NCBI GenBank assembly: GCA_036785375.1
Contig: JAWMAR010000224.1
Coordinates: forward strand, 1,488,001-1,552,000
DNA length: 64,000 nt
Reading direction: 5' to 3'
Source: Leucoraja ocellata
Taxonomy: Eukaryota
The translations under genes and the position numbers were made by a program. Positions 565 to 57,760 of the stretch are shown piece by piece (the first letter of the stretch is position 1; each line of letters begins with the position of its first letter). Under the pieces are notes generated by a model. The model worked only from the letters and a program-made list of their open reading frames with translations. It made no database searches and was not told where the DNA came from.

Positions 565-850
565 TTCTCCTCATCTCGCTTTACCACCTTTTTCCCCTCC
601 ACTCCAACAATCTGAAGAAGAGTCCCGACCCAAAACGGCACCAGCCCATTTTCTCCAGAGATGCTGCCTGACCTGCTGAGTTACTCCAGCATTTTGATAG
701 ATTACCATTTATCTTTGGTATAAACCAGCATTTGCAATTCCCCTTTAATGATATGAAACGAGATCTGTTCATTTCCCTCCTCAGATGCTACCTGGCCCAT
801 TGAGTTCCTCCAGCAGGTTGCTTTTGCTCAAGATTCCAACATCTGTATTC
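565..850 (+). mobile_element. Penelope-derived terminal repeat unit(s) with degenerate hammerhead core
   Basis: tctgaagaagagtcccgacccaaaacgg...ctccagagatgctgcctgacctgctgagttactccagc, followed by a second partial unit. Same motif as the 3' end of the element at 28.5 kb. Confidence 0.7.
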
Positions 851-854
851 TTTT

Positions 855-1095
855 ACTGAGATACAGCATGGAAAGAGGTCCTTCTGCCCACCGAGTCCGC
901 ACCAACCAGCGATCACCCCGTACACTACCACTATCCTACACACTGGGGACAATTTGCAATTTGCAGAAGCCAATTAACCTACAAACCCGTGCATCTTTGG
1001 GCTGTGGGAGGAAACCGGAGAAGGCCCACGTGGTCACAGGGAGAACATACAAACTCCATACAGGCAGCACCCGCAGTCAAGTCTCTAGCGCTGTG
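855..1095 (-). mobile_element. HE1/V-SINE-like SINE (partial)
   Basis: Shared body ccaattaacctacaaacc...gggagaacatacaaactccatacaggcagcacc and CR1-like tail gagatacagcatggaaa. Confidence 0.8.
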
Positions 1096-2231
1096 ATTCT
1101 CTGCATCTGTATTCTCGTGCCATGAGACTGACAAAGCTGGTGAGCAACCAGCATCTAAAGTCACACCAATGGCAATCTACCTTAACAATGAAATGACCAG
1201 TTGGAATCATAGAACAACTTTCTCCAAATGGAAGTTGAACAGGAAATTACATTACAAATTTGAGGTAGTGGCAGGGGGGGTGTAAGGGGCAGGTGCATGC
1301 TGGCAAGAATGTTGAGATTATAGAGGCACTATATTAGATTTTATGTATGGAGCAGACAGGAGGACACAAACAGGGAACAATTTAACATTACCTGAAGCAA
1401 AACTGAGTATCTGAGCTAACACTGTGTGACTAATACAGATTCTTATTAATCCAGAACAGCAAAGTTGCCAATGGCCTTATTTACATTATGCATTTCTGTC
1501 TCTAAGTATTATAGGAGAATTTCTGATCGTGGATAACTCTGCTTTTCATTAATCAAATTAATCTCAAGACAAGATGCCATCAAATTATAGGTTTTCTGAA
1601 TGAATTGATAATCCACTATTTATAAAGATAACTTTCTGTTCCAAAAACAGACTCTTATTTTGAACAAGGATCCAAAACAGACATTCAAAAGCCACCATTT
1701 CTTTGATCGGTTCAATGTAGTTAATTTATAGAGTAGAAACAGCTCATAATTAACCACCAACAATTCTAACAAGTGGTTCTTCAGAATTCTTAACAGATTT
1801 TTTCTGAAGCTGCTCTTTTGTCATTTATTATTGAATCAATCAATGATAGCTATATTATAGTAATAAAGCATGCATTTGAGATGAGGCTTCATTAAAAAAA
1901 CATTGACGGAAGCTATTTGGGATATACCAGTGAGACGTTCCCATTATAGCCGCAGGAGCAGATGACAGAATTACAACCTCACAGCAGGTTTCACTGATTG
2001 TCCTTGACAACTAATAGATTTGGTCAGAATAATCTTTTTGCAATGTTTATCATATCACATTGCCAGCTAAGTCGTACCATTGGTGATCATAGTAGCTTTC
2101 AAAGTCAACGGTTCAATGGTTCCATATTGTCACAAACGCACCGCACAGTCAAACTCATGCACACTTCGCCATTTTTTGCCGCCATTTAGAAAAGAAAAGG
2201 TCCAAAGTCCAGTCCAATCTCATCTACTAAT

Positions 2232-2712
2232 TCCGCTGTTACAGGTGCCAACTTCTCTACATCGGCGAGCCCAAGCACAGGCTCGGCGATCGTATCGCTG
2301 AACACCTCCGCTCAGTCCGTCTTAACCAAGCTGATTTCCCGGTATCTCAGCACTTCAACTCCCCCTCCCATTCCCAATCTGACCTTTCTGTCCGGGGCCT
2401 TCTCCATTGTCAGAGTGAGGCCCAGCGCAAATTGGAGGAACAACACCTCATATTTCGTTTGGGTAGTTTACACCCCAGCGGTATGAATATTGACTTCTTT
2501 AACATAATTCAGGTAGCCCTTGCTCTCTCTCATTAGTTCCCCCCACCTTCCCAATTCCCCACTAGTCCCACTGTCTCCGCCTACATTCTTTCTTTGTCCT
2601 GACCCCTCCCCTTACAAGTCTGAAGAAGGGTCTCGACCCGAAACGTCGCCCACTCCTTCTCTCCATAGACGCTGCCTCACCCGCTGAGTTTCTCCAGCAT
2701 TTTGTGTCTATC
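2232..2712 (+). mobile_element. Penelope-like element 3' part: GIY-YIG endonuclease end, 3' UTR, hammerhead-like motif
   Basis: Translates as RC..CQLLYIGEPKHRLGDRIAEHLRSVRLNQADFPVSQHFNSPSH...LEEQHLIFRLGSLHPSGMNIDF. Followed by the CTGAAGA...GAAACGTC motif at 2620-2647. Confidence 0.85.
2620..2647 (+). ncRNA. Minimal type I hammerhead-ribozyme-like motif
   Basis: CTGAAGA-A-GGGTC-TC-GACCC-GAAA-C-GTC. Core boxes intact, stem II present, stem III reduced to the palindrome ACGT, stem I only about 2 bp. Confidence 0.6.
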
Positions 2713-3164
2713 ATTATTACAAATGATATATCTTACAGAGAAGAATTATTTTATTGTTTTATCTTGAGCAAAAATCAAACTGCCAGAGGAACGCAGTGGG
2801 ACGGGCAGCATCTGTGGAGGGAAATGGACAGGCAGCACTGTGGATCAGGACCCTTCTTCAGAACTGCTTTAACTCTTTAATAGGGGAAAGCCAAGGGGTT
2901 CCTCCAACAGTTTATCTCTATGTGAAATTCCTATCTGTTAAGATGGGGTCAAGGAAAGAGCGTTCACGTTGCGGCCCCGTTTTCACCAATCTTTCCACCA
3001 CCACACACAAGAAGCACGAGAAGCGTAAGACAAGACAGACACCATTACATGCAGATGCCGAAACGTGTGTTCAGCTCTGGCTGAACAATTTGTAATCTTG
3101 TGTATGGACTCAAAGAAGAAGAAGCTCTGTTAAGATCCCTCAACAGGGAAGATACTGAGTTTTT

Positions 3165-4034: not shown

Positions 4035-4125
4035 TATCCGAAGGGCCCTGACCTGAAATGTCACCCATCCTTTTTCTCCATAGATGCTGCCCAACCCGCT
4101 GAGTAACCCCAGGACTTTTCCCCTA
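4035..4125 (+). mobile_element. Decayed Penelope-derived terminal unit
   Basis: gaagggccctgacctgaaatgtcacccatcc...gatgctgcccaacccgctgagtaacccc. Confidence 0.6.
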
Positions 4126-6179: not shown

Positions 6180-6712
6180 AGGGCCTGCCCCCCCTTAGGT
6201 TATTTTTAGGCGACTGTCAGAGTCGCAGCGGGTCGCCGAAAAAACGGCAGCTTGACCCCACTTCGACAAAAAATTTGAAATGTCTTTTTATGATGATTCT
6301 ATGTCACCTGGCGACAAGTTACGTTAGTCTGAAGAAGGGTTTCGGCCCGAAACGTCGCCTATTTTCTTCGCTCCATAGATGCTGCTGCACCCGCTGAGTT
6401 TCTCCAGCAATTTTGTGTACCTTCGATCTTCCAGCATCTGCAGTTCCTTCTTGGACAAGTTACGTTAACCTGGTGACAACTACGACAGCACCTACGTCAG
6501 GAGAAGTCAAGCTACGCTTATTGGTGTCAAACCCACTGTCGCCGACTGTCTCCGAAAATTTTTCAACATGTTGAAAATCCAGCGGTGACCAGAAAGGCGC
6601 TACGACTCTTTGGCCGACTGAGGAGACTTCTCACGACCATACAGGTGACACCCCGGCGACCATGTGGCGACTGCCTAGTCACCTAAAAATTAGCCTAAGT
6701 GGGACAGGCTGT
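6180..6712. mobile_element. PIF/Harbinger-type MITE
   Basis: TIRs agggcctgccccccctta... / ...cctaagtgggacaggctgt, flanked by TAG/TAA (decayed TWA TSD). No coding capacity. Confidence 0.75.
6327..6453 (+). mobile_element. 127-bp hammerhead-bearing Penelope-derived insertion with 14-bp TSD
   Basis: Direct repeat gacaagttacgtta at 6313-6326 and 6454-6467. Insert begins gtCTGAAGAAGGGT-TTCG-GCCCGAAACGTC. Confidence 0.9.
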
Positions 6713-7489: not shown

Positions 7490-7579
7490 TTAGATGTTTA
7501 AAATAAAGTTTTTCTCACAGTGGATGTTATTGTATCTTATTGCAAGGGCATTAAATCCATATCTCATAATAAAGTAAAA

Positions 7580-7780
7580 AAAAGTGCTGGAGTAACTCTG
7601 TGGGTCTGTCAGCATCTCTGGAGAACATCGACGATGTGTCAGGTTGGGACCCTTCCTCAGACTGATGTCCCGACCCAAAGTGTCACATCCATGTTTACTG
7701 GAGACGCTGCTTGGCTCACTGAGTTACTCCAGCACCTTGTGTCTTTTTATTAAAATGGGCATCTGCAGTTCCTCATGTCT
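7580..7780. mobile_element. Palindromic (inverted) Penelope-derived terminal unit
   Basis: gtgctggagtaactc...cagcatctctggag...cagac followed by ...ggagacgctgc...gagttactccagcac. Confidence 0.7.
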
Positions 7781-8185
7781 TTATATCAAAGGAACCTATT
7801 TGAGATGCGTCAGATGCTAAATATATATGCATAATATTATGATATTATGTTCTATTAGACTGGTGACGACATAATCAGAGGATTCAATGTAATTCATTGG
7901 TTTTGCTTTATGAACTTGCTAAGAAAACATGCTTAAATATTAGCATTTAATATCCATTGTTTATTCTCCCTGAACCGAGCAGCCAGTGGAGAGGCATCTT
8001 CCAGTGAGCTCACAGTCATAGGTGCGCCTAATCAGGCAAGGATAGTGGATTTATAAATCCTATGAAAATAGCAATTACTGCACTGTCATTCAACATGATC
8101 ATAGCTGGGCATCCAAATTCCACATGTAGAAAGGAACTGGAGATGCTGGTTTTACACCGAAGATAGGCACAAAAAGCTGGAGTAA

Positions 8186-8780
8186 ATGGCCTGTCCCACT
8201 TGGCCGTCATTTACGAGACAAGCCTGTAGTGACAGACGCGCCCGGACAGCCGTCTGGAGCGCGTGACGTCATTCGAGATAGACACAAAATGCTGGAGTAA
8301 CTCAGCGGGACCAGCAGCATATCTGGAGAGAAGGAATGGATGATGTTTCGGGTCGAGATTCTTCTTCAGTATGAAGACCCGAAACGTCACCTATTGCTTC
8401 TCTCCAGAGATGCTGCCGGTCCCGCTGAGTTACTCCTGCATTTTGTGTCTATCTCCAATCGTCGTGGCCCCGCTCTGGGAGTAGGAGTGAGGGCGGATTC
8501 AGATCCGCAACGGCCGTGAGCCCCAGGCCGAGCTCGGCGATCGTTTGCCTGCTTCTGCTGCTGTTGGAGGCGAGACGTTGCGCCGTGCCAGGGTGTACCA
8601 TTTGGCCGTCATTTACGCGACAGGCCGGTGGCGTGCGAAGATTTCGTACAGAACAAAATCCTAGAGCGCTGCGCTATACCCCGCGCAACTCCACACTCCT
8701 CCACACCACTCCATGTGCCCATCCCATGCTACCAGGTCGCGTAAATGGCACGCAAATGACGGACAAGTGGGACAGGCCCT
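8186..8780. mobile_element. PIF/Harbinger-type MITE
   Basis: TIRs atggcctgtcccacttggccgtcattt / aaatgacggacaagtgggacaggccct, TAA TSD. Confidence 0.9.
8275..8455. mobile_element. About 180-bp palindromic Penelope-derived unit nested in the MITE
   Basis: gagatagacacaaaatgctggagtaactcagcgggacc ... ggtcccgctgagttactcctgcattttgtgtctatctc. Confidence 0.85.
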
Positions 8781-9597
8781 TAACTCAGCGGTTCAGGCAG
8801 CATCTCTGGAAAATAGGAATGGGTGACAAGACACAAAATGCCACCTACTCCCTTCTCTCCAGAGAGGCTGCCTGACCCGCTGAGTTACTCCAGCACTCTG
8901 CGAAACGTCACCTATTCCTTCTCTCCAGAGATGCTGCCGGACCCGCTGATCTACTATATCCAAAATTCCACATCTTGTTCCAGCTTTTACCCCCCATATC
9001 CCTCAAGGGTATCCCCAAAGGACATAGTGACCCAGATGAGTTTTCAACAATGCTTGCTTGTTCCATTGCCAGTGTTCCCGAGACTAAGACAAAAATAGAT
9101 AAGAGAGATGTGAGAAAAACAATGAAACCCTTTGAAACCACAGCCAGTGAGTAGCATTTCTTGTTTTTCTTCAGCCACCATATTGGCACGAGATATCAAA
9201 CCGCCTGTGCATTTTTACATTCTTATTTAATAAACAATACGTTTTCGACCTTTCACCTCATTACCCGGTGTGAAATGCTTACGTTACCACTGGAGACTAA
9301 ACTCAAGGGAGGCTTCATTAACAATTGAGCACCATCTTCACAATGCGAAAAAGGAAAGGGCGATGTAAATACAAATGCATTCATTTACACAAAAGACAAA
9401 CGACAAAATATAGCAACACATTAGAGGGCAACATGATCCTCGGTAACAAGTTATAGTGTGAAAGTATTGGTTTAGATAGCTTAAAAGTTGGCTTCATAAA
9501 TTCCAATAGCAAGTATTTAGTTGATATCTGAAGCTCCGGCCAATAGTTATGATTTATTAAATCATAATCTATGCTTGAAACGGATGTTTTTGTAGGT

Positions 9598-10330
9598 CTG
9601 TGTAGAAGGAACTGCAGAAGCTGGTCTAAACTGAAGATAAACACAAAAATGTTGGAGTAACTCAGTGAGTCAGACAGCATCAGACTGGAGAAAAGGAATA
9701 GGTGATGGTTCGGGTCGAGACTCTTCTTCAGAATCTGAGGAATGGTCTTAACCTGAAGCGGCGCCTATTCCGTTTCTCCAGACCTGCGAGCTGACACGTT
9801 GAGTTACTCCAGCTCCCAGTCCCAATATTGACTCAAAACATTTTATTGGTTTTTATCAAGACAACATACATTAGATAGAACGCAGAATGCTGGAGTAACT
9901 CAGTGGTCAGACAGCACCTATACAGTACGTGGTTAGGTGCCATTTTTGGGTCGTGACCTTTTCCAGTCTGAAAAGGAATCCCAACCTAAAACATCACCTA
10001 TCCACATCCTCCAGAGATGCTGCCTGACCCGCTGAGTTACTCTGGCTGCTAGCAACGTGTGTTCTAGGCAAGATTCCAGCATCTGCAGTCTAGTAGGTCT
10101 AGTATGTCAATATATATTAGATGTGTGGGAAGGAACTGCAGATGCTGGTTTAAACCAAGATAATACACACAAAGCTGGGTTAACTCAGTGGGGCAGGCAG
10201 CATCTCTGGAGAGAAGGAATGGGTGACGTTTCGGGTCGAGACCCTTCTTCAGACTCTGAAGGGTCCCGCCCGAAACGTCGCCTATCCTTCTCTCCAGAGA
10301 TGCTGCCTGTTCCACTAAGTTACTCCAGCT
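9598..10330. mobile_element. Cluster of three palindromic Penelope-derived units
   Basis: Units at about 9598-9815, 9880-10090 and 10122-10330. Each is a minus-strand copy joined to a plus-strand copy at the hammerhead-like core. Confidence 0.8.
10225..10252 (-). ncRNA. Minimal hammerhead-ribozyme-like motif
   Basis: Reverse complement reads CTGAAGAAGGGTCTCGACCCGAAACGTC. Confidence 0.6.
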
Positions 10331-11074
10331 TAATATATATTAGATGCCTGTTATACGTTTTAAAAATTCACATTGTTTGAAGAATCCAGCTTGTAACTAC
10401 AATGTGGAAACAGACGATACACATATGTACTAAATGAATGCACTAAATAAACCTTGCACTGAACAAATAAACCTCTAAAATAGCTTCATCTTTTGCTGAA
10501 TTTCAAATATATAAACAAAACCCTCATCTTGCATTTACTGTTGGCTGCTGCAGCTATAAACATCTTCCACAAAAACCACCAGGTTTCCCCAACAATGCTG
10601 GAGACACTCAGCTGATCGTGGTGCAGAAGTAGAGATCTGTACTCCAGATTGGAGGCATTTCAGTTCTGCTTTTAATACAAGAAAACGATTTGTGATCCAA
10701 CATATAAATTAACAAGTGTCTGGAGCAAATCCCTTGCATTGCTGCAGCTATTTCCCTGTGGCCCAAGAGATACTGTAGAAAGGTCACAGATGCAGCAGGG
10801 AGCAGCATTGCGAGCTGCAGCAAGCAGCAAGCAGCATAGGTCAAGCTACAGTTCTTGGTTGCAGAGAAGAAAATGGAGCAACCATTGTCAGGGGTCATTG
10901 AGTTAGAAAGATTTGGAGAAAACTGCGGAGCGCAGAACGAGATTCAGCAGCGAAAAACCGGCTCCTCGGCCCACCAAGCCCACGCCGACCATCAACCGCC
11001 CAATTTATAGTATCAATCTAAGATTAATCTCATTTTTATTTTCCCCTTTTCCACCCATTGCCCGCAAATATACT

Positions 11075-11965: not shown

Positions 11966-12229
11966 AAATCGTGAAAACACCTCTTTTTACCATTGATCTT
12001 CACCGAGGTCATTCACCAGTGACCAGTTAATAACCAGCAAACCTTTGGATGTAAGAATAAACGGTGCCCCTGGACCTGTGAGGTCAGCAGCACTACCAGC
12101 TGCAACACCATGCTACCCCGAACATGGTCCTTCCTAGTTTGTGATTCTGTAGATGCTGCAGTTCTGAGGCACTGGGTCTACTGCAACGTTTTGTCCCCGA
12201 GCTATCAGTATCAGTACTGCCTCCAACTG

Positions 12230-12752
12230 CGACCTCCCGGTGCTAAATACTTTAACTCTCCCATCCATTCCCACACTGACCTTTCTGTCCTGGGCCTCCT
12301 CCACTGTCAGAGTGAGGCCAAACCTAAATTGGAGGAACAGCACCTCATATTTCACGGGCAGCTTACACCCCAGCTGGGTGAATATTGATTCACTAATTTC
12401 AAGTAACCTTTGCTGTCCCTCGCTCTCTGACCCTCCCCCACCCTCGTTCTCTGACTAGTTTCACTGTCCTCCTGATTAATTTTACTGTTTGTATGCCTCG
12501 TTGTCACCTTCCCCTCAGCCAACAATGATCCATTCTGCATTTCCTAACCATTGTCTGCTTTGATCTGTCGATTTCACACCTTACCCTTCCATGTCTCTAG
12601 TTTCCCTCTCCATGAATCTCAGTCTGAGGAAGGGTCTCGACCCGAAATGTCACCTATTCCTCTCTCCGAAGATGCCGCCTGTCCCGCTGAGTAACTCCAG
12701 CATTTTGTGTCTAGCTTCAGTGTAAACCAGCATCTGCATTTCCTTCCTACAC
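12230..12752 (+). mobile_element. Penelope-like element 3' part with hammerhead-like motif (12624-12651)
   Basis: HSHTDLSVLGLLHCQSEAKPKLEEQHLIF (GIY-YIG domain C-terminus), then CTGAGGAAGGGTCTCGACCCGAAATGTC. Confidence 0.85.
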
Positions 12753-12977
12753 TGACTCTTACTGAATGTCCCGAGGGGGAAGCACTCTTCTTCCCTGTCC
12801 TGCCTGTAGGATGTGATGATGGAGAACTGGCTCACGACATGGCTAAGCAGTAGGGCTGCAGTCAAATGGTTATATGGTCAGCAGTGACTCAGTGGTTGTA
12901 CTTTGTAGCTCTGAGTCAGATTGCCACGGGCTTCAAGATCCACTCTAGCCACTCATAAACACGAAGACCGCACTATA

Positions 12978-13507
12978 GAAACAAAGAACTGCAGATGCCA
13001 GTTAATACACAAAAGAACACAAAGTGCTGGAGTAACTCAGCAGGTCAGGCAGCAACTCTGGAGAACATGGATGGATGACGTTTCTGGTCGAGACCCTTCT
13101 TCAAAGTCAGCACTGATGTTTCAGTGGAGTTCGGCACATTATCATCAGTATTGCAGATGAACAATGAAACTTTCTTTCCATCTAGATAGATACAAGGTGC
13201 TAGAGTAATTCAATGGGTCACACAGCATCCCTGGAGAAAAGTAATAGGTGACGTTTCAGGTCAGAACCTTTCTTCAAGCTGAAAGTGGGGTGATGGTGGG
13301 GAGGGGGAGGGGATTAGAGGTAGGGAAAAACAGGGCCGGCAACATTTTGTTCTGGCCTATTCCTACATCCAGTTCCCCCCCACCTACTTTCAGTCTAATG
13401 AAGGGTCTGACCCGAAACATCACCTTTCCTTTCCTCCAGAGATGCTGCCTGTCCCGCTGAGTTTGTGTCTGTCTACCTTCGGTATAAACAGCATCCTTCC
13501 CACACAT
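12978..13507. mobile_element. Penelope-derived units (minus copy 12978-13102; inverted pair 13185-13507)
   Basis: aagaactgcagatgc...gtgctggagtaactcagc...gacgtttctggtcgagacccttcttc and an inverted partner. Confidence 0.75.
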
Positions 13508-14520: not shown

Positions 14521-14809
14521 AATCTAACCTGACCTGAGCTTGTTCTTCACAGCTTCATAGTCACCTTAACACATTTCTGGCAATGTTTTACTTATGCTCC
14601 AGCAAAAAGTGGCAAGAGATAAAGTTATGCAAGTTTTGATAGACGATATCTGAATATTTCACATTATTAATGTCCTAAGACTTCCGCTCAACTCTCTATG
14701 GTCTCAAATACAACAAAGGCAGTTACAAATGTTATTTTTGTTAAATATTCATTTTACTGTTTGAAGTATCGAGCCAACATCGAGCCCAACATTTACTCTG
14801 CACGTAGAA

Positions 14810-15359
14810 ACATGGAACCGCAAATGCTGGTTAATACCTAATGGGACACAAAGTGCTGGAGTAACTCAGCGGGTCAGGCAGCAAGGATTAGTGACAATTC
14901 TGGCCGAGACCCGCTTCAGACTGATTGTAGCGAGTGGGGGAGAAGAATAGGGAAGAGGAAGGACAAAGCGTGGCAGGTTGACATAGGCAATGCTGATTTT
15001 AGACAGGTGGATGGTTGGAACAAAGGCCAGAGATAATTAAGGAAGGTGCGAGACAGATTTAAAAAGACGAGGAAGATTTAAGAAGATTGAGGAAGATGAC
15101 TGCACTTTCGTGCCTTCCCTCACAGTGGGAAACGTTGATTCCGCTGTGTGGGGATGCTTATGTTAAATCCTATCGTGTATTGTGTTCTTTTTAATTGTAT
15201 GGTTCTATGACTCAAAATCTCACTGTACCAATTGGTGCATGTGACAATACATGTAACTTGAACTTGAACTTGAGAAATTGTGGATTGTAAAGCCAGAGGG
15301 AGGAAAGCAGAGGGGGAGTAGTGGGGCTGTGTGGGAGATGGAAATAGGTGGGAATCCAT

Positions 15360-15391
<32 letters not shown>

Positions 15392-15885: not shown

Positions 15886-16422
15886 TTTTGAGAGTTGTCA
15901 GATTATCCTTGACTAATGGCTGAAGTGACCATATCCGTTTTGTGTTGGTTTTGGAGAGAATGTATGCTGAGGAAAGCGGATGAAACATCGATCAAGTGGG
16001 CACATTCCTCAGAATCTGGGTGGGAAGTAACTGCAGATGCTGCAGCGCCCATTCCTTCTCTCTTCAGATATGCTGCCTGTCCAGCTGAGTCACTCCAGCA
16101 TTTTGTGTCTATCTCAGAATCTGGGGTTAGTTGCTGATGTACTCATGCTGACATGCAGAGAGTATTCTATCACAGTGGTAATTGGTGCCCTGCAGATTAT
16201 GTGTCACAGTGCGAGTCATCCATCATGGAACACCGAGCCACAGACCAACGCTGTAGAATGTTATCTATGCAGTTGCTCCAATTATACTTCTCATTAACAG
16301 GGACAAGAAAAGTTGATGAACGGGGACTCAGTGATGGCGATGTTTCCGAATGGCAAGCATAGGGATTAGACTTCTGGTTGAAGATGGTCTTGCCTGGCAC
16401 CTCTGAGGCACTAATGTTATTT

Positions 16423-19039: not shown

Positions 19040-19640
19040 CACCCAAGACTGCAGATGCTGGAATCTTGAGCAGATGTGAACTTAGCTAGCCAAGCAGCAT
19101 CTGTGGAGGCAAATGGTTGGATGGTGTCTTGGGTCGGGACTGAGATCATGGAGAGAAGTAGCTAGTATATGGAGGTGAGAGTGTGGAGTGATGCAGGAGC
19201 CAGGGGATGATAACAGCAGAGGCAAGGTGGTGAAGATACAAAAGGCTGCAGATGCTGGAATCTTGAGCAAAAAATGAACGGCTAGGGACAAAATGGGGGA
19301 ACTCAGCAGATCAGGCAGCATCTGTGGAGGGAAAAGGACAGACAACTTTTCTAGTCAGGTCCCTTCTTCATACCAATTGTGCAGGAAGGAACTGCAGATG
19401 CTGGTTTACACCGAAGATAGACACAAAATGCTGGAGTCACTCAGCGGGCCAGGCAGCATCTCAACATCTGGCCATCAGTCAGAAGAAGGGCCAGGCAGCA
19501 TCTCTAGAGAGAAGGAATGGGTGACGTTTCGGGTCGGGACCTTGGTATCTGGCCATTAGTCTGAAGAAGGATCTCGATTCAAAAGTCACCCATTCCTTCT
19601 CTCCAGAGATGCTGCCTGTCCCTTATTCAGACTAATGGCC
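19040..19640. mobile_element. Cluster of Penelope-derived terminal units, mostly minus strand, with rearranged palindrome
   Basis: Repeated ctgcagatgctgg / cagcatctgtggagg / gacgtttcgggtcgggacc motifs, and atctggccat-agtc repeated in both orientations. Confidence 0.7.
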
Positions 19641-26101: not shown

Positions 26102-27049
26102 TTACAGTCTGGAGAAGGGTTCCAACCCAAAATGTCACCCGTTCCTTTTCTCCAGAGATACTGCATTTTGTGGTTATCTTAGGTGCCTACATGCTTAGCT
26201 GAAATAATTTGCAGGGATCTGGGCAGAGGAGAGGGAAGCGAGACGGGTCGAAATACTCTGGCATTGTGCCAGCACTGACTTAATGAATTGATTGGTTTCC
26301 TTCTGTAAACGTACTCTGACACTGTATACCAACCGGCTCAAGAGTCTGGAGGTTGTAATTTCCTTCGTCAATGCCTCACTTAGGAGTTAATGCAATTGCC
26401 AAAGTGATAAAGGTCTCCAAAGCACTTTATTTTCTCGGTGCAAATAGCATTCTGCCGAATGAATTTTAATAGCTGCACATGGACTCTGTCTACAGGTTTG
26501 TCTTTTGATGCTCCTTCCCATTCCTGCTCTGCTCCTGCCGTCTTCCTCATCCTCCCAGCCCCACTCCTGATTCTGCATGTCTAATCTCCACAAGTGTTCC
26601 CTCCTCTGCTTTTACAAAGAAAATTCTTCCCCTTAACATTCTCCTTGATATTTTGTGTCTCCCCCTCAGTCCCATTCTCCAGCTGCAGTCAGTGCAGCCA
26701 CAGTTAGCAGCATTGTTCCATGATAAGTGTTGGCAATTCAGCCCAAGACTGAAGGAACCTGATGCCACCGCTGTCATTTAAAGCAGTGCTTCTTAAACTG
26801 GTGAATGGTTCGCCCCAGGGGAAAATTAAATTATTTTAAGAAATGAGTTAATTTATGTTGTTTGCTCATGTGACAAAATAAATAATATATAAAATTATAC
26901 ACGAGAGAATAAGACGAATATTACCCAAAAACATAAGAAAATTTAGTCGAGAGTGGATGAAATTTTGTGATAAAGACTCAAGGGTGAATGACTGCAATAT
27001 TTTACGAAGTACTGATTTAAAGCATTCTTTTAATGAAGCCTCTGTATCA

Positions 27050-27401: not shown

Positions 27402-27907
27402 GTCCTTGCTCAGATGCCCATAAAATGTCTCAGGGCATTGTTCCAAGACATGCAGTCAGTCCTTTCAGCTTTAGCCAATAGTTTTTCTCGACCAAACACA
27501 CTTGTTTCCGAGCCCTTGCTGTGTTGAAATTGACTGCATGTTTGCCCAGAAAAGTCTTCATGTGAAACCAATTTGCATTTAAGGTTTGCAATTGTAATCT
27601 AAATTATAATGAGCCCGAGTTCAAAATCACAAACCTGGCCCCTAATTTAGCATTAATTGGAATTAAATGGAAATCAACATGAAGAAAGTAGGATGGGAAG
27701 TATTGGAAATGGAGCAATCTCACAGCAGTACGTCTTGCATACGGGTACAGAGATGCGTAGTAATGACAATTAACCTACAATTAGCATGCTGCTTATGATT
27801 TGATCTAAGGCACCTCTCGCTGACTGGGTGTAAACATTTCCAAGCCTGTGACATCCTGTTGCACTGATGAGTGTAATATTTATTAAAAAAGACCCATGGA
27901 AAGCATT

Positions 27908-28252: not shown

Positions 28253-28464
28253 CGCATAGAAATTGACATGGAATGAAACCTTTTAAGACTCTAATTCAAC
28301 TTTTTTTCCCTTCGGACTTCACAACATAAACAGCAGACCAGTGCTTTTACATATTTCTGATCAGGGTACAAATTTTGAAAATCTATTTCATTAAATTAAA
28401 AACACTAGTTTGCCAAATCTCATAAATTTGGATCAACTATAAACAAAGTTGGCTTTAGCAAAAG

Positions 28465-31060
28465 ATAGAAGATAGACACAAAAAGCTGGAGTATCTCAGC
28501 GGGACAGAGAAGGAATGGGTGACGTTTCGTGGGTCGAGAGCCTTCTTCAGACTGGTTAAGGATAAGGAAAATGAGAGATATAGACAGTGATGTGGAGAGA
28601 TAAAGAACAATGAATGAAAGATATGCAAAAAAGTAAGGAGGATAAAGGAAGCAGGAGAGAATGCCAGGGCTACATGAAGTGAGAGAAATCAATATTCATA
28701 CCACTGGGCTGTAAGCTGCCCAAGCAAAATATGAGATGCTGTTCCTCCAGTTTGCATTTTAGCCTCACTCTGACAATGGAGGAGACGAAGGACAGAAAGG
28801 TCTGTGTAGGAATGGAAAGGAGAATTCAAGTGTCCAGCAACCGGGAGATCAGGTTGGTTCACGCGGGCTGAGGGAAGGTGTTCCACGAAACGATTGGTCT
28901 CACCGATGTATAAGAGTCCACATCTTAAACAACGGATACAGTAGATAAGGTTGGAGGAGGTGCAGGTGAACCTCTGCCTAACCTGAAAGGACTGTCGGGG
29001 GTCCCTGGACAGAGTGGAGGGAGGAGGTATAGCGACAGATGTTGCATCTGCTAAGGTTGCAGGGGAAGGTACCTGTGGAGGGGGTGGTTTGGGTTGGAAG
29101 GGATGAGTTAACCAGTGAGTTGCAGTCTCCGCGGAAGGCGGAAAGGGGTGGAGATGGGAAAATGTGGCTAGTGGTGGGATTCCTTTGGAGGTGACGGAAA
29201 ATTTGGGAGGATTATGTGTTGTATGCGACAGCTGATGGGATGGAAGGTAAGGACTAGGGGGACTCTGTCTCATTAGGGGGAGGAGGAGGGGGATCAAGGG
29301 CGTAGCTGTGGGGTACCGAGGAGACACGAGTGAGGGCCTCACCTATGATGGGAGAGGGGGAACCTCTGTTCTCTAAAGAATGAGGACATCTCGGATGTTC
29401 TAGTACGGAACACCTCATCTTGGGCGCAGGTGCAGCGTAGATGAAGGAATTGGGAGTAGGGGATAGAGTCTTTGCAGGAAACAGGGTGGGAAGAAGTGTT
29501 GTCGAGATAGTTGCGGGAGTCAGTGGGTTTGTAATACATGTCAGTCAACAGTCTATTTGTGATGGAGACTGTGAGATCAAGAAATGGGAGGGAGGTGTCA
29601 GAGATGATCCAAGTAAATTTGAGTGCTGGATGAAAATTGATGGTGAAGTTGATAAAGTCCATGAGTTCTGCATGGGTACAGGAGGAGCACCGATGCTGTC
29701 ATCAATGTAACGGAGATAGAGTTTGGGGATAGGGCCAGTGTACACCAGGAACAGGGATTGTTCAATGTACCCTACAATGAGGCAGGCATAGCTGGGGCCC
29801 ATAGCTACGTCTTGGACTTGGAGGAAGTGGGAGGAGTTAAAGGATAAGTTGTTGAAGGTGAGAACCAGCTCAGCTAGGCGGATTAATGTTAGTAGAGGGA
29901 AATTGGATGGTTCTGCAGTCGAGGAAGAAATGGAGGGCTTTAAGGCCTTCCCGGTGGGGGATGGAGGTGTAGAGTGACTGAATGTCCATAGTAAAGGTGA
30001 GGGGGCTCAGAAAGCGGGTCATTAAAGAGACGAAGGGCATGTGAGGTATCTTGGACATACTGTAGGTCGGGAGAGATTGGACCAGGGGATGGGATGGGGT
30101 CGAGATACGTGGAAATCATTTCCGTGGGACAAGAGCAAGCAGGAACAATGAGTCTGCCAGGGCACTTGTGTTTGTGGATTTTGGGGAGAAGTAAAAACAG
30201 GCTGTGTGGGGCTGAGAAACAATAAGGTTGGAGGCTGTGGAAGGCAGACAGCCAGAAGTGATGAAATCAGTGATGGGGTTTGAGATTAAGGCGTGGTGCT
30301 CATCTGTGGGATCATGGTCCAAGGGTAAGTAGGAGGAGGTGTCTGAGAGTTGTGGCCTGGCCTCAGCCTGGAAGAGGTCAGCGTGCCAGACTACCACTTG
30401 TTGCAGGTTTGATTATAATGTCAGGGTTGCTGCAGAGGGAGTGTACGTTGAGAGAGGGTTAGAATAGGTAATGGGAGAGGAAAAGTTGTGATGATTGACG
30501 TCACATCGGCAGTTAGAAATAAAGAGGTCCAGAGAGGGTAGAGGGCCGTCCTGTGGAGTCCAAGAGAAGGGGAACTGGTGGAGACAGGAGAAGGGGTCAT
30601 CACTGGGTGGTGAGGACTACTTCCCATAGAAAAATGCACCACAGAGGCGACGGAAGAAAAGCTCCACACCTGAACTCGGTGAGGCGGGGGCACGAGGGGA
30701 ATGAAGGCAAGGCCTCTGTTGAGGACAGACCGTTCTGTATCAGAAAGGGGGAGGTCAGAGGGGATGGTGAAGGCACGACAAGGGTGGGGGCTGGTGCCAG
30801 AGGAGGGCCGGGGGGTGGACAAAGACAGAGGCGAGATCTGGTCGGGGGATGGTGGGCATCCTGAACGGAGGGGGGGGTGGGGACTATTGTATGGGTGGGG
30901 TGTGGTCGGGGTAACCTGGTTAAAAGAGGGGGAAGGGGAAGACCCATCACTACCGAGGTCCCCTGTAGGATCCAGCAGAGTCAGGCCACCTGCTGTCGGA
31001 GTCTGCACCGTGGAGATTGTGGGTCTGGTGCCGAGCCTAGCACTCAGATATCTCTCGTTA
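28465..31060 (-). mobile_element. Near-complete, frameshifted Penelope-like retroelement (RT + GIY-YIG)
   Basis: Minus-strand ORF pieces: LSDTERSVLNRGLAF, FTMDIQSLYTSIPH, MGPSYACL..YLRYIDD, FLDL..YYKPTD..YL..SSHP...SIPYSQF, FTCTSSNLIYCIRC.RCGLLYIGET. Ends in the hammerhead-like terminal unit at about 28521-28550. Confidence 0.92.
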
Positions 31061-34240: not shown

Positions 34241-34750
34241 TGAACAGAACAAGTCCTGAAAATGTGCTTCGATCCTTTCCTTAACCGTGCCATAAACTTA
34301 GCTTGCAAGACATTGCATCAAAAGGCTCTCACAAGGAGACCTGCATGGAATAACTTGGCTCGCTTCAAAAAACGAACTTCAATTGCTGTAAAAGCGTGTG
34401 TAATTTATATTTAGTAATCGGTTTCTGAGCAAAATATCCGATAATGACAAAATATCCTATAATGAGAGTACAAATCAAATAGCACAAGAATACAAGTTCA
34501 AATCCTTTCTATTACCTGTCATTGATGTTGCCAGGTTTAACATTTTTGCATGTGGTGATTAGAAATAAAAAATGAATGCTGTGGAATTTGACATAGTGAA
34601 CAATAGCTGTCAGTTTACCCATATTAATGGTTGCTCATGATGTTGCTGCTTTTGGAAGCATTATTTCTGAATGTTTAAGTGGGTGGTTGTTGCTTATTGC
34701 AGGAAGACTCTTACTGCTGCCACACGCAGCCCTTCTGTACCATAATTGCC

Positions 34751-34990
34751 AGTCTGAAGGGTCTCGACCCGAAACGTCACTCATTCCTTCTCTCCAGAGA
34801 TGCTGCCTTTCCCACTGAGTTACTCCAGCATTTTGTGTCTACCTGCCTGTGGAAGGGTCTGGAGAAGGGTCTCGACCCGAAAACATCACTCTTTCCTTTG
34901 CTCCAGAGATGCTGTCTGACCCGCTGAGTGACCCCAGCAGTTTGTGACTATCATTGGTGTAAACCAGCATCTGCAGTTCCTCCCTACACA
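34751..34990 (+). mobile_element. Head-to-tail dimer of the hammerhead-bearing Penelope unit
   Basis: Cores at about 34754 and 34859, each followed by ctccagagatgctg...ctgagt..cccagca. Confidence 0.8.
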
Positions 34991-35534
34991 CTTTAAATCT
35001 GTGCACTTTGTTACAGAGCCATTTACCTGGCATGTATTTCCAGCACAATTTGTTTTTGACTCGTAGAGTCAGTCGATTTACTGTGACCGGGACAGTCCTG
35101 GTTATGCACACCACTATCGCATCTTCTCCCAACCTTGCCTATGGTCTGGAGAACATTCACAGATTCTGTTATTTAAACTTACAGCTGCAATACCTGATCC
35201 CTGGCTGGAATCATTTTAGGTGAAAATCAATTTCAGTTAAAGTCTGCATAAATGAAACGATGCACTATCGCTCCGACCTCGGCAGGATTCCATTTGCTTG
35301 CATTTTGTGTTATCTTTGAGTGTGAATACACCAGCTGTGACTAAATTGGACATTTCTCCACCATGCTGAAGAAACCATCAAATGATGTTCCATATCTTTT
35401 TCCTGCCTAGTTGAACCCAAGTGATACGCCAGGACCCGGATCTTGGGCCTATGCATAAATTCCTGAATATCATGATAGAAGTGGTGATCAAAGGTTTATC
35501 AAAGGCTATACAGGCAATCTCCGACTTACATAGA

Positions 35535-35975: not shown

Positions 35976-36285
35976 CTTACTTATGATTGGTGGCTATTCT
36001 TTTTTCCATTGAATCAATCTACACAACTAGTTAGCAGATCATCATTCCATCATGTTGACACACGTGCCTGCAACATTGCCAACAAATGTTCCCGTAAAAT
36101 GATTCTCGACTGCTGCGGTTCATCACAAAATATGAGGCGTTCCCATTATTTCATCTGTTTCTCAAGGCCAAAGAGAAACGTTCATAATGGGGTACTGTTC
36201 AAATGTGACGAAAGTGATCGATGATCCAGCATGGTCATTTGACCTGCTGTTCTTCACAGCACAAGTCAAAGGCAAACATATTCTG

Positions 36286-36440
36286 AAGATAGGCACAGTG
36301 CTGGAGTAACTCAGCGGGTCAGGCAGCATCTCTGGAAAAAAAACCCAAAAAAAAACAAAAAACGTCCTGACTCACTGAGTTACGCCAGCACTTTGTGTCT
36401 ATCTTAAGCATAAACCAGTGTCTGCAGTTCTTTGTTTCTG
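36286..36440. mobile_element. Palindromic Penelope-derived unit lacking the hammerhead core
   Basis: gtgctggagtaactcagcgggtcagg ... cctgactcactgagttacgccagcac. Confidence 0.7.
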
Positions 36441-36534
36441 CAGACATATTCTGGACCAGATGCATTGAGCGACGCCAAACGCGAAGTGGCACATTGTCAG
36501 AAAATACAAAGTGAGACAATGCAGCACAACATAA

Positions 36535-39592: not shown

Positions 39593-39824
39593 CGGCCTCG
39601 GTAGGCCGTTTACTTGGACCCAACAGAGTTGGGGAAAAATGGCCATCTCCAGTGCCTGAACACTGCCAAGATTCCTGACATAATTGATGATTGGTTCAGC
39701 CTTCCCCCCCCCCCCCCCCCCCCACTGCTACACTGCGGAAATTAGAACCAATTCATCTCTTTCTTCCACTCACTCTTTCCAATTCTGATCCTGCAAGTTA
39801 TTCAAGACAAAACATTAACTCTGT

Positions 39825-39950
39825 TGTGTAAGAAGGAACTGCAGATGCTGGTTTAAACTGTAGACACAAAAAGCTGGAGTAACTCAGCAGGACAGGCAGC
39901 ATCTCTGGAGGGAAGCAATGGGTGACATTTTGGGTCAAGACCCTTCTTGT
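39825..39950 (-). mobile_element. Penelope-derived terminal unit
   Basis: gtgtaagaaggaactgcagatgctgg...gggtgacattttgggtcaagacccttctt. Confidence 0.75.
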
Positions 39951-47292: not shown

Positions 47293-47299
47293 TCAATGC

Positions 47300-47810: not shown

Positions 47811-48174
47811 CTTGACCTCGTCAAAAGTTTAAATAAACATAGACAACATCTACTGCCTGGTGTTCATCAGCCTTGTTGGTTTCCTCTTCCGAACACTCAA
47901 GATAATGATCTTCCCAGCACATTGTGCTGTGTTGTTCTTTCCACAGAACCGTTTGATCTAACAAATGGTTTTAATAACTCCAACATCATGTCCCAACTCT
48001 TGTAGTCAGTAACTGAGCTCTTGAAGGCAAGCCTACCAAATGTCTTGATAGACACGAAATGCTGGAGTAACAATAGGCAGCATCTCGCGAGAGAAGAAAT
48101 GGGTGATGTTTCGGGTCGAGACCCTTCAGACTAAAAAAGTGTAAATAAAAATAAGTCCCAATGCCTTATTCACT

Positions 48175-50907: not shown

Positions 50908-51090
50908 AAGAATGCTGGAGTAGCTCAGTTGGGCAGAATCTCAGGAGAACATGGATTAGGTGACATTTCAGGTCAGGACTCTTCTATAGACTGATGGGTT
51001 AAAACCCAATACTTCACTATCCATGTTTTCCTGACCCACTGAGCTACTCCAGCACTGTCTTTTGTAAACCAGCATCTGCAATTCTTTGTT
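50908..51090. mobile_element. Palindromic Penelope-derived unit (old)
   Basis: atgctggagtagctcagttggg ... cccactgagctactccagca. Confidence 0.65.
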
Positions 51091-51094
51091 CCCA

Positions 51095-51385
51095 ATTTAG
51101 TTGACTTTAGTTTAGATACAGCTCTTCAGCCGACCGAGTCCATGATGACTAATGATCCCTATACATTATTACCCTACACACACTAGGGATAATTTACATT
51201 TGTACAGAGCCAATTAACCTACAAACTTATACGTCTTTGGACTGCGAGAGGAAACCGAAGATCGTGGAGAAAACCCACACGGTCATGGGGAGAACGTACA
51301 AACTCCGTACAGACAGCACCCGTAGTTGGGATCGAACCCGGGTCTCTGGCGCTGCAAGGCAGCAACTCTACCACTGCACCACCGT
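51095..51385 (-). mobile_element. HE1-like SINE
   Basis: Body plus B-box gggatcgaacccggg and head ctctaccactgcaccaccgt. Confidence 0.85.
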
Positions 51386-53725: not shown

Positions 53726-54289
53726 ATGATTAGTGTGGATTGGTCTTTAGAGGTACGGATACCATACAGAAACAAGCCATTCGACGAACTGAGTTCGCAC
53801 CGACCAGCAATCACCCTGTGCACTAACCGACACACACTAGGGACAATTTTACAACTTCCCGAATTAACCAAAGTTATGTTGTTTTGGGTTTCTGAAGAAG
53901 GGACCGGACCAGAAACATCATCTATCAGTGTTATCCCAAAATACTGCCTGACCTGCAGAGTTGTTGCAGCACTTGATTTTTTTTTTGGTGAGCAGATTGG
54001 GCTTCTACCCCCCGGTTTAGAAGAATGCAAGGTGATCTCATTGAAACCTACGTATTCTTACAGGGCATGACACCTTAGATGCTGAGGCAATGTTAACCCT
54101 GACAGAGATTTCCAGCACTGGAGGTCAAAGTCTCAAAATAAGGGGCCAGCCATTCAGAATTAAGAGCAATTACCTTACCGAGAGGGCAATGAACCAGCCC
54201 AGGAGTAAAACACTGTAGATAAGTTCATTAGTTCTAGGAGCAGAATAAGGACATTTGGCCCATCAAGTCTACTCCATCGTATAATCATG

Positions 54290-54552: not shown

Positions 54553-55961
54553 TCTATCTTTCCCTCTCATTCCCATTCCACTGCCTTTGCCCCATAACCC
54601 CCAACACCCTATTCCAAAACCTGTCAATTTCCACCTTAAAAATATCTATTGACAGCCTCCACAGCCGTCTATGGGAATTAATTCCACAGATTCACAAGTT
54701 CATGTTCGTAATTGATACGAGCAGAACTTGGTCATTCGGCCCTTCAAGTCTACTCCGCCATTCAATCATGACTGATCTATCTCTCCTTCCTAACCCCATC
54801 CTCCTACCTTTTCCCCATAACCTCTGGCAACGGTGCTAATCAAGAATATATCCATCTCTGCCTTAGAAATATCCATTGACTTGGCCCCCACAGCCTTCTG
54901 TGGCAAATAAGATGCTGCAAAGACAAAATACAAACTGAAAATTATGGAAGTACCCAAGTGTGGAGAAACAGTGTCTAATGAAAGATCATCGACTTGAAAC
55001 GTTAACCGTTTCTCTCTCTCAGCGCTAACTAGCAGAGTATTTTTTCAGCAATTTCTGCATAAATTTCAAGTATATTTCCATTCTGCTAACTCAGCTTTGC
55101 TGGAGAGTACATAGATTTAAAAAAAAAACAGAACAAAAGGACCATATGTGTTCGCCTACTTCACCAGCATGAAATATCACCCTCGGGACAGTCAATCAAA
55201 GATAGACAAATCACATTTACCCCAATGTTCATAAAGAGTCTGGGATCATCTGCCTTGCTTTTGCTTCATGTTCCACTAAAATACAGCTTCTGTGCCCATG
55301 GGTTGATATCTCCCTCTCTCCCCAATTTTAAAGGAAATATATATTTTGGGATCACTGTCCAACCAATCCAGAGTCCTTCTGCTGGCAGATGGCACATTTA
55401 CCACCAGGCAAAGACAAAGCATGGACGTGCACCACTAATGAGATCCTGTCACAGACTCTATTGTGAATCACCCTGTGGCTACACAGCCCGATCTGTCTGC
55501 ATTTCCTTCATGTACCCAGCAAGGCATTTCCAATAAAACCAAAGTCCACTGACCCAGCAGGCTGGGCTGACCCAGAGACTCCCCTGCAATGACTTACTGT
55601 CCAACCAAATGGATTCATTGCTCCAGGCTTCAAAATAAAAATGCTTGCAAGGAATTAACTATTAAAAAAAATATATTGATTTAAACATTCTTTAAAAGAG
55701 ATACGGCAAGCCACGGCTAATTGCAAATGATTTGTACAATACATTTCCGCAATAAGGGCAGCACAGTGGTGCAGCGGTACAGTTACTGTCTTCCAGTACC
55801 AGAGACCCAGGACTGCTCTCTGGTTGCAGTAGAATGGGTTCAGTTGGCTGATAAACCACTGTTTGTCAGCACTGGGCCTGCACTCACTGGAGTTTGGAAG
55901 AATGAGGGGGGGGGGGAAGATCTCATTGAAGCATACAGAATAATGAAATTGTTGAGAGGAT

Positions 55962-56970
55962 ATTTGCACTAGTGGCGACAATAAGATCATAAAATTCGCG
56001 GATGACACAACAGTGGTGGGACTCATCAGCGGAGATGACGAATCAATGTACAGGGAGGAAGTAAAACAACTAGTGGATGGTGCGGAAAAAATAATCTAGA
56101 ATTAAATGTCGACAAAACGAAGGAGATGGTTGTCGACTTCAGGAGGGCGCAGCCAAAGCACACACCCCTCAACATCAGTGGCACTGCAGTGGAGAGAGTG
56201 GAGAGCATAAAGTTCCTCGGTGTGCAAATTACAGACAGCCTCACCTGGTCCAGGAACATCACTGGGATTGTCAAACGGGCCCATCAGCGACTGCACTTCC
56301 TGAGGAAACTAAAACAGGCCTCACTCCCCACCAACATCCTCAGGACTTTCTACAGGGGCACGGTGGAGTCTGTACTCACGTACTGCATAAATACGTGGTA
56401 CTCCACCTGCAACTGCTCGGACAGGAAGGCTCTGCAGAGGGTAGTGAGGGGAGCAGAGAGGATCATTGGCGTCTCCCTACCCTCGGTACAAGAACTGTTC
56501 CAGAGCCACCGTCTAAAAAAAGCTCAGAGAATTGCTACGGACAAACTGCACCCCCTCCACATACACCTGGATCTTCTGCCATCAGGCAAGAGATATCGAA
56601 GCATCAAAGCCCGGACTACAAGACTGGTAAACAGCTTCCTACCACAGGCTGTGAGGCTGCTAAACAGTCACTCTGTACTCAGTCACTTGATTCTGCGGCT
56701 GGCACGGACACTTTAATAACTGGCACTGGCCACTCAAATCAGCTGCCCCGGACATTTTTATGATTGGTTTAATGTATTTTAATGTTGTGTTTCACCTGCT
56801 TTTAACTATTTATACTGTTCCATCAGGGACTGGATTGTTTTTAGTGTTATTATGTGTGAAATGTTTTAAATTTCATGTGCGATGCTCCTCTATTCCCTGG
56901 GAAACGTCTTTTCATTTTGCACTGTACAACTGTTGCTTGCAAGATGACAATAAAGGTTGATTGATTGATT
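55962..56970 (+). mobile_element. Rex1/Babar-type LINE, 5'-truncated, inserted into a CR1 fragment
   Basis: KIIKFADDTTVVGLI..DDES.YREEV, LNVDKTKEMVVDFRR, KFLGV.I, QRLHFLRKL, FYRGTVESVLT, SFLPQAVRLLN. AATAAA followed by (GATT)n tail. CR1 pieces at about 55880-55960 and 56971-57260. Confidence 0.9.
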
Positions 56971-57424
56971 GAGACTAGGATTAGAGGTCATTGCCTCTGA
57001 ATTAAAGAACTCTCTTTGGTTAGGAGATGGAGGAATTTTAGTCAAAGGGTGGTGAATCTATGGAATTCTGCCACAGAAGGACGTGGAGGACAAGTCAGTG
57101 GATATTTTTAAGGCAGAGATACAGATATTTGATTTGTACAGGTGTCAGGGGTGAAGGCAGGAGAATGGGGTTAGGAGGGAGAGATAGATCATCCATGATT
57201 GAATGGCAGAGTAGACTTGATGGGCCAAATGGCCCAATGCCATTCCTATTCCTTATGACCTTAATAGCTGGGAAAAAACTGTCCCTGAAACTGGGAGTGT
57301 GCGGTTTCACACCTATACCTTTTGCCCGATGGGAGAGGAGAGAAGAGGGAGGGGCCAGGGTGCAACATCCTCAATTATGCTGCTGGCCTTGCCGAGGCAG
57401 CATGAGGTACAAGTCAATGGAAGG

Positions 57425-57760
57425 GAGATACACAAAATGCTGGAGTAACTAACTCAGTGGGACAGGCAGTATCTTTGGAGAGAAGGAATGGGCGGCGTTT
57501 TGTGTCGAGACCCTTCTTCAGACTGAAAGTCACGGGAAAGGGAAAGATTTAGAGAGTTATAGAACAAATGAATGAAATATGTGCAAAAATGTAATAATGG
57601 TAAAGGAACCAGGCCATTGTTGGCTGCAGCTTGGAGGGAACAAAAGCTGATGTGACTTGGATGGGGGAGAGAGAGAGCGCAAGAGAGAGCGCAAGAGAGA
57701 GCGCAAGAGAGAGCGCAAGAGAGAGAGAGAAGGGATGCTGGGGTTACTTGAAGTTAGGAA
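57425..57760 (-). mobile_element. Penelope 3' UTR/terminal region with (GAGAGAGCGCAA)n microsatellite
   Basis: Matches 28465-28690 (gagacccttcttcagact...agaacaaatgaatgaa). 12-bp repeat at about 57668-57728. Confidence 0.75.

Follow-up and report, generated by a model that had tools for sequence, protein, structure and literature searches.

Hammerhead-bearing repeats of high copy number in Leucoraja ocellata as probable by-products of Neptune-type Penelope-like elements

The stretch of Leucoraja ocellata DNA analysed here (64,000 nucleotides of contig JAWMAR010000224.1, referred to below as the window) contains remnants of Penelope-like elements with GIY-YIG fragments and, between positions 608 and 57526, 46 arms of a short repeat unit, as was found by a profile search that gave no matches in one reversed and four shuffled control sequences. 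The unit consists of a minimal hammerhead motif and an optional tail of about 38 nt. A preliminary description made from the same sequence was right that a repeat family is present, but its count of about 25 copies was too low. The features are given below as coordinates, strand (a dot for head-to-head pairs) and content.

608..748, +, arm with tail and short UTR stub
754..854, +, arm of older type, truncated inside the unit
2231..2723, +, Penelope-like 3' end: GIY-YIG fragment 2231-2533, pyrimidine-rich UTR, unit 2617-2723, full core 2620-2647
2757..2862, -, solo arm, older subfamily
4040..4118, +, truncated arm
6325..6459, +, solo arm with tail, full core 6329-6356 (UUCG-loop subfamily), 14-bp target-site duplication
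7577..7779,., head-to-head pair
8119..8185, -, tail-only fragment
8271..8458,., head-to-head pair
8781..8955,., head-to-head pair and one more direct arm
9603..9814,., head-to-head pair
9873..10093,., head-to-head pair
10118..10332,., head-to-head pair, minus arm with full core 10225-10252 and tail
12023..12754, +, second element 3' end: GIY-YIG fragment, UTR, unit and tail 12619-12754, core 12624-12651 with broken palindrome
12975..13106, -, solo arm with tail
13183..13281, -, arm with UTR stub
13390..13495, +, arm with UTR stub
14804..14924, -, arm with UTR stub and tail
16044..16132, +, truncated arm
19042..19140, -, old truncated arm
19238..19462, -, two direct arms
19488..19622,., head-to-head pair
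26105..26184, +, solo arm
27906..28085,., head-to-head pair, plus arm with core 27980-28007
28121..28260, +, arm with tail and short UTR stub
28464..30900, -, broken, 5'-incomplete, probably Neptune-type element: RT pieces, CX4CxxC linker, GIY-YIG, UTR, unit 28464-28554
34750..34993, +, two direct arms with damaged cores
36279..36442,., head-to-head pair, both arms truncated
39822..39948, -, arm with tail
48046..48132, -, solo arm
50911..51097,., head-to-head pair, old
53891..53986, +, solo arm, old
57426..57526, -, arm with UTR

The pair at 10118..10332 is predicted by folding to form one long hairpin. A CPEB3-like HDV-headed element lies nearby at 2945-3125, for which no autonomous partner was found in 16 loci examined.

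The very high copy number supposed earlier is borne out. One 30-nt core has 17,621 exact matches genome-wide, the reversed pattern having none, and 600 kb sampled outside the window hold 258 arms (about 430 per Mb), which make up about 3% of the sampled bases. The same sample contains 16 GIY-YIG and 5 RT matches to the long element.

GIY-YIG fragments precede the unit at three places in the window (2.2, 12.0-12.4 and 28.7-29.3 kb), and the unit lies directly downstream of GIY-YIG in 27 of the 30 best loci out of 149,066 first-look candidates. This agrees with the preliminary description, which had the unit ending GIY-YIG elements and derived it from Penelope. The unit also heads the ORF: when loci were chosen by the ORF 5' region, 12/30 had a match to the unit or tail some 200 bp upstream, with a donor-like splice signal after it. 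The element has the terminal repeat at both ends, plus an inverted copy and a tail, and the recognisable ORF starts about 350 bp past the hammerhead. Elements examined have the order of RT followed by a C-terminal GIY-YIG endonuclease, the GIY-YIG match having E 0.005, which is under the Pfam cut-off. Relatives of the element protein carry RVT_1, PF26215 and, in some cases, GIY-YIG (PF01541); a Pfam search with the window fragments of the element matched no family. The closest named protein relatives come from sharks and a stingray (59-63% identity), consistent with the cartilaginous fish host that had been proposed. The minus-strand window element has a CX4CxxC linker near 29060-29030, found also in locus L154, and a linker of the CX2-5CxxC type is given for Neptune and Nematis (PMC8557442). 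By its sequence the element appears to be a Neptune-type EN+ Penelope-like element, the choice of Neptune over Nematis resting on linker and host. Among 20 loci examined no ORF was intact, and whole source elements were thus not observed; no RNA record carrying the long element was listed.

A structural descriptor (CUGANGA, stem II of at least 4 bp, GAAA-NN-UH) recovered exactly the five clean cores reported before, at 2620, 6329, 10252 (minus), 12624 and 27980, and nothing in 10 shuffles. The subfamily consensuses have the CUGANGA...GAAA core, the NUH site, stem II and the palindromic 15.2-16.2 pairing, as well as the extra nucleotide after A9, and correspond to the minimal type I hammerhead that had been recognised; Rfam hammerhead models gave no window match at E<=1. 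The full core is kept in 19/258 arms of the sample, about 1 in 14, which extrapolates to an estimated 1e5 complete motifs genome-wide. Stem I, noted earlier as short, has 2 bp in all five window cores and in 29/37 descriptor matches, with 3 bp in 1/37. The palindrome of stem III is present in the subfamily consensuses but is broken in the core at 12624, where TG replaces CG; 21/37 descriptor matches keep this CG. Three stem II loop variants had been described, of which the TTCA loop at 27980 is not covariation but a change seen in one copy, at a CpG that belongs to the TTCG subfamily. The three subfamily consensuses show no changes in 13 core and stem III positions vs 21/84 elsewhere, a conservation of the core that is statistically only modest (p 0.02 binomial, 0.06 Fisher). 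The three consensus changes in stems and cut site preserve pairing or the NUH rule. At position G12, a CpG site, the oldest class has A when K is 5 or 6. An alternative type III fold, cut just before the motif, was rejected by eye, as no stem I or III can form.

Self-cleavage by the motif is a prediction from this structure, and a promoter or RT-binding role could explain the core constraint equally well. Reportedly, dimer cleavage is treated by Luense et al. (RNA Biol). It is possible, at somewhat less than even odds, that the motif now cleaves in no context and is conserved as a promoter or RT-binding sequence. The 2-bp stem I points that way, as do the monomer folds, in which stem II has a predicted probability near 0 in 5/6 cases and a competing helix forms. 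In one poly(A) RNA run from a related organism, reads fall on the two strands of the unit in about equal measure and show no pile-up of ends; a library of this kind would hardly show one, and the result is not counted as evidence on activity. Eight of nine tested Xenopus dimers are reported to have failed to cleave (bioRxiv 10.64898/2026.07.22.740005), and insertion in vitro is described as needing no cleavage (PMC11167929). Against the loss of cleavage stand the unchanged core and the tolerated stem changes across subfamilies, the D. virilis motif, which likewise has a 2-bp helix I (PMC4209133), and the anole motif, described as cleaving when the element protein is present (PMC11167929).

The unit is bimodal in length: its 3' ends form two clusters, about +87-101 and +126-135 when counted from the C of CUGA. 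About a third of the arms (77/238) are held in head-to-head inverted pairs, a published Penelope-like insertion pattern that was absent from the preliminary description, and in 32/43 pairs exactly one arm has the tail vs 21 expected (p 0.0009). Target-site duplications flank few solos (9/55 in one count and 7/99 in another, controls 0-1). As for the 5' ends, 79/191 non-UTR arms begin at or before +2, within a few bases of the motif and at an initiator-like site, a regularity worth noting and one that cDNA run-off at an RNA 5' end predicts. A copy start at the cut site was rejected: only 6/191 arms begin at +27 to +31 vs about 11 expected from other inside ends. Short copies hold sequence from both sides of the cut, which indicates an uncleaved template RNA.

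The suggestion that these copies are a distinct retrozyme- or SINE-like family, with its own masters, released by the hammerhead and mobilised in trans by Penelope RT, is improbable. The sharp 5' boundary and the large excess of short copies over the 16 GIY-YIG and 5 RT matches would suit it, and animal retrozymes are reported as derived from these terminal repeats (bioRxiv 10.64898/2026.07.22.740005). Among loci chosen by unit and 5' body, 23/30 have another unit in direct orientation no more than about 630 bp away, a retrozyme-like layout, with both flanking cores complete in 3 of the 23; their junctions, however, differ between loci, except in duplicated loci sharing flanks. No subfamily is private to short copies: each of three latent subfamilies (179 arms) has UTR-bearing, solo, inverted and inside-truncated arms (12/9/10/5, 20/28/21/11 and 12/23/17/11, respectively). 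No tandem arrays were found, the direct neighbours within 500 bp being 22 among 238 arms, spaced by 65-407 bp, and Rfam gave no tRNA-, 5S- or 7SL-derived SINE-type head in the window. With regard to circular RNA monomers, go-back joints are rare in the RNA and occur in contigs as well. The copies start away from the cut site, and the whole unit aligns to the element's end.

The repeats are, with a probability of about 0.8, the terminal repeat of a Neptune-type GIY-YIG Penelope, their short copies most likely being reverse-transcription by-products and not a self-propagating SINE or retrozyme. This reading rests on the identity with the autonomous element ends, the presence at the ORF head, the two fixed 3' ends about 38 nt apart, the frequent pairs with the tail on one arm and the shared subfamilies. 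By analogy with the anole element (PMC11167929), the element endonuclease would nick DNA and RT would start at two internal RNA sites, and priming from both strands would yield inverted pairs in which one arm is long and the other short. Copies stopping just before the motif may, at about even odds, represent cDNA run-off at the RNA 5' end, its position then being the initiator-like TCAGT of the upstream repeat. In favour of the main reading, 10/11 body-linked 5' repeats that reach the start stop there, and joints in contigs of two related organisms repeatedly fall on window base 2617, the A of TCAGT. In source elements the hammerhead, probably weak and requiring a partner copy or the element protein, is likely kept by selection; in stubs it would be a decaying passenger.

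The same origin is compatible with another, somewhat doubtful account of the 5' boundary, namely that RT stalls, or jumps to another template, at the C/U-rich tract or at a 3'-splice-site-like CAG just upstream, and not a transcription start. The UTR types upstream of the unit (four or more) are all pyrimidine-rich and end in CAG, and the D. virilis Penelope intron is described as ending at helix I (PMC4209133). Read-through into the UTR is similar in body-linked 5' repeats (3/13) and in the arms of the sample (36/115), and run-off and stalling are not separable by these rates. Solo copies, however, mostly retain the A (21/48) and G (36/48) of the upstream CAG and hence do not derive from spliced RNA; a spliced origin of the boundary is disfavoured. 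The start is preceded by an extra G mildly more often than expected (13/24, p 0.013, in a partly selected set; 3/7 duplication-defined junctions), as a copied cap would give, which is only a hint of cap origin. D. virilis Penelope, moreover, has an internal promoter with an initiator and a downstream element (PMC2377424). Tentatively, then, the stubs may be 'strong-stop'-like products: RT would prime at two internal sites, some 95 and 134 nt away from the capped RNA 5' end, run off and sometimes add a G by copying the cap, and jumps from one RNA end to another would leave one-off two-hammerhead units of 230-630 bp, raw material for retrozymes.

The minimal hammerheads, inverted ends and tails of Penelope-like elements are already published, and since the class, motif and inverted layout are known, the finding itself is ordinary. 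No dedicated description of this repeat family in cartilaginous fishes was found in the open literature; shark motifs may be listed in the alignments that accompany PMC4209133 or in the bioRxiv tables. The value lies in the scale and regularity (the share of sampled bases, the sharp ends, the estimated number of complete motifs), which make the repeats a natural data set on transcription start and RT priming in Penelope-like elements and on whether a hammerhead with a 2-bp helix I can still cut. If the strong-stop reading is true, a single genome offers over a million junctions from which the start site of Penelope transposition, its priming sites and its strand order could be read.

Non-LTR retrozymes (PMC7229834; bioRxiv 10.64898/2026.07.22.740005) are likewise described as short kin of Penelope terminal repeats with a type I hammerhead, but they form head-to-tail arrays with a hammerhead per unit and circular RNA, whereas the skate repeats lack arrays and have the minimal motif variant. 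The metazoan Penelope hammerheads of Cervera and De la Pena 2014 (PMC4209133) share with them the type I core, the extra nucleotide between 9 and 10.1, the G10.1-C11.1 pair and the palindromic 15.2-16.2. They are also mostly single, dispersed and tied to truncated elements, with some close opposite-strand pairs. Helix I has 2 bp here vs 4-5 bp typically there (2 bp in D. virilis). The extrapolated 1e5 complete motifs compare with about 4,000 in coelacanth and about 9,000 in X. tropicalis, counts obtained with different descriptors; cartilaginous fishes are not named as hosts in the available text of that paper.

The insertion units of EN+ Penelope-like elements (PMC8557442, PMC3846280) are described as a terminal repeat, an adjacent inverted 5'-truncated copy and a 30-40-bp tail. 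Head-to-head arms, a tail at one end, the Neptune-type linker and intron-like sequence close to the 5' end occur in these units and in the skate elements alike, as do partial tandems and, in some copies, duplications of 8-15 bp. Unlike these published units, most skate insertions consist of nothing but the repeat, whose arms reach a density of about 430 per Mb and have a sharply defined 5' boundary just before the motif. Poseidon of Anolis carolinensis (PMC11167929) belongs to another clade and its ORF begins inside the hammerhead, not about 350 bp after it, but in the published account it resembles the skate element in RNA-seq without ends at the cut site, in an uncleaved RNA template and in two RT start sites that define the tail.

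The repeats are end-stubs of Neptune-type Penelope-like elements carrying a minimal hammerhead as a passenger, and they are real and abundant. A relaxed motif scan with an iterated profile search detected 46 arms in the window, that is, copies of a terminal repeat unit of ~95 nt with an optional tail of ~38 nt, and the same profile search returned zero arms in five control sequences. The five hammerhead cores named in the preliminary description are exactly those returned by a structural descriptor, which found nothing in ten shuffles; the Rfam scan of the window contained no hammerhead match. The 3.44-Gb assembly contains one particular 30-nt core 17,621 times without mismatch. In 60 stretches of 10 kb, taken at hand-picked round positions on 59 larger contigs with small contigs left out, 258 arms occupied 3.2% of bases (0 arms in the reversed control), which extrapolates to 1.5 ± 0.16 million arms assembly-wide. 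Such totals are probably inflated, with the density unaffected, because the assembly contains near-identical duplicate loci (e.g., the fetched loci L004/L005, L129/L130 and L271/L272), which suggest uncollapsed haplotypes or segmental duplicates. Paired loci lie on different contigs or on the same one, L271/L272 being on C224 and C366.

The unit forms the terminus of a Penelope-like element, and the Penelope origin proposed earlier was right. It directly follows a pyrimidine-rich UTR in 27 of the 30 best GIY-YIG loci, and at least four unrelated UTR types all reach the same CAGT ahead of the hammerhead motif. In 12 of 30 loci chosen by the ORF 5′ region, a unit or tail match lies ~200 bp upstream, and a donor-like signal and an intron-like stretch come after it. 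Occurring both after GIY-YIG and ahead of the ORF, the unit is therefore a repeat at both element ends. No intact ORF was found among 20 loci examined. The closest named protein relatives come from sharks and a stingray. The CX4CxxC linker is assigned to Neptune and Nematis in PMC8557442. Retroelements in the window include the following:

2945-3125, plus strand: ~175-bp element, unrelated to the hammerhead unit, with an 11-bp duplication (2934-2944 / 3126-3136)
28.5-30.9 kb, minus strand: long Penelope-like copy with RT pieces, CX4CxxC linker and GIY-YIG
48268-49338, minus strand: other LINE-type RT element fragment (RVT_1 match at 48.3-49.3 kb)
56039-56716: other LINE-type RT element fragment (ALKBH8_N match at 56.0-56.7 kb)
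63013-63546, plus strand: other LINE-type RT element fragment

A near-perfect inverted repeat at 53621-53726, with about 45 bp per arm, gives weak miRNA-model matches; no second copy was present in 1.4 Mb of sampled DNA.

The first 52 nt of the 2945-3125 element have a predicted minimal HDV-like fold (P1 6 bp, P2 7 bp, P3 3 bp), scoring 31.3 bits with the Rfam CPEB3 model, under the gathering score of 35. The family, represented by loci L271-L316, has about 2,000 first-look candidates, with young copies at 99-100% identity; related organisms also have it, both in RNA and in contigs. Copies begin at the G following the predicted cut in 26/28 cases and have duplications in 18/28, with a GAA-type tail. 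The translated 3′ part resembles a LINE C-terminus and may be Vingi-like; no autonomous partner was found in 16 loci. Copies in L301-L303, L306 and L314 occupy one identical position within a repeated C2H2 zinc-finger array and thus multiplied with it. A 19-nt stretch is common to the family and the Rfam CPEB3 consensus, and the family may be connected with how the mammalian CPEB3 ribozyme originated. The likeness may also be convergence, which is pronounced among cores of this kind: those of R2 and HDV agree at 21/27 positions (PMC8256844).

Arm 3′ ends form two clusters, about +87-101 and +126-135 from the C of CUGA. The gap equals the 30-40-bp tail of Penelope-like elements described in PMC8557442 and PMC3846280, which PMC11167929 explains by two internal RT start sites. 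Among 238 sampled arms scoring at least 30 bits, weaker matches being excluded, 77 belong to head-to-head pairs, 56 are solos beginning at the motif, 67 begin inside the unit, 36 run on into a UTR (an approximate class, set by homology or a pyrimidine-content rule) and 2 lie at a stretch edge. Exactly one arm is tailed in 32/43 pairs, versus 21 expected; the tail is absent from the start-reaching arm in 9/9 informative pairs, but when pairs were selected by their full-start arm, 6/24 had the reverse arrangement. Genuine duplications of 10-15 bp occur but are uncommon (9/55 and 7/99 solos, versus 0-1 in controls).

The 5′ boundary is sharp: 79/191 non-UTR arms start at or before +2, and 10/11 body-linked 5′ repeats reaching it stop there. 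In two related organisms, contig joints repeatedly hit base 2617, the A of the TCAGT site, which fits the initiator consensus YYANWYY; extra G at the arm start is in mild excess. The boundary may reflect cDNA run-off at the RNA 5′ end, but RT stalling at the C/U tract may also account for it, because UTR read-through is about equal in 5′ repeats (3/13) and all arms (36/115). An internal promoter that combines an initiator, a downstream element and a splice donor is reported for Penelope of D. virilis (PMC2377424).

Across subfamily consensuses, none of the 13 core and stem III positions changes, while 21/84 others vary (p 0.02 to 0.06). Within the motif, stems I and II each show a U-A to U.G change, and GUC becomes GUU; when K is raised, the oldest class has A in place of G12, a CpG site. 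Only 37/258 arms pass the structural descriptor, and 19/258, about 1e5 assembly-wide, also keep the palindrome and stem I of at least 2 bp. Predicted monomer folds prefer a competing helix, with stem II probability near 0 in 5/6. Minimal hammerheads of this sort are already known, with inactive monomers and weak dimers (PMC4209133 and the review PMC6765202). In poly(A) reads from a related organism, both strands of the unit are covered (depth about 3,100 vs 2,800) with no pile-up of read ends, which fits read-through and has little bearing on cleavage activity. An older, diverged hammerhead-like motif missed by the profile, whose cut triplet is GUU and whose tail differs, lies at 54975-55008 (plus strand); similar ones occur in L111 and L119.

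The separate retrozyme/SINE-like family proposed in the preliminary description is not supported. Latent-class grouping of 179 arms gave three main subfamilies, each with similar shares of UTR-bearing, solo, inverted and inside-truncated arms. Tandem arrays were absent from the window and sampled stretches, and 5′ ends at the predicted cut (+29) are avoided, not favoured (6/191 vs about 11 expected). Of 30 loci selected for having a unit together with 5′ body, 23 have a second direct unit within about 630 bp, past an internal jump; both flanking cores are complete in 3, junctions differ between loci, duplicated loci excepted, and no amplification of two-unit forms is apparent in this small, selected set. 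L242-L268 are internally deleted Penelope copies in which 90-500 bp of body or UTR separate the unit and its tail from a second direct unit, some with short A runs at the junctions. The two-unit loci resemble the retrozyme precursors of bioRxiv 10.64898/2026.07.22.740005. Because copies carry sequence from either side of the cut, their template RNA was uncleaved, as likewise reported for the Anolis element, whose hammerhead requires protein (PMC11167929).
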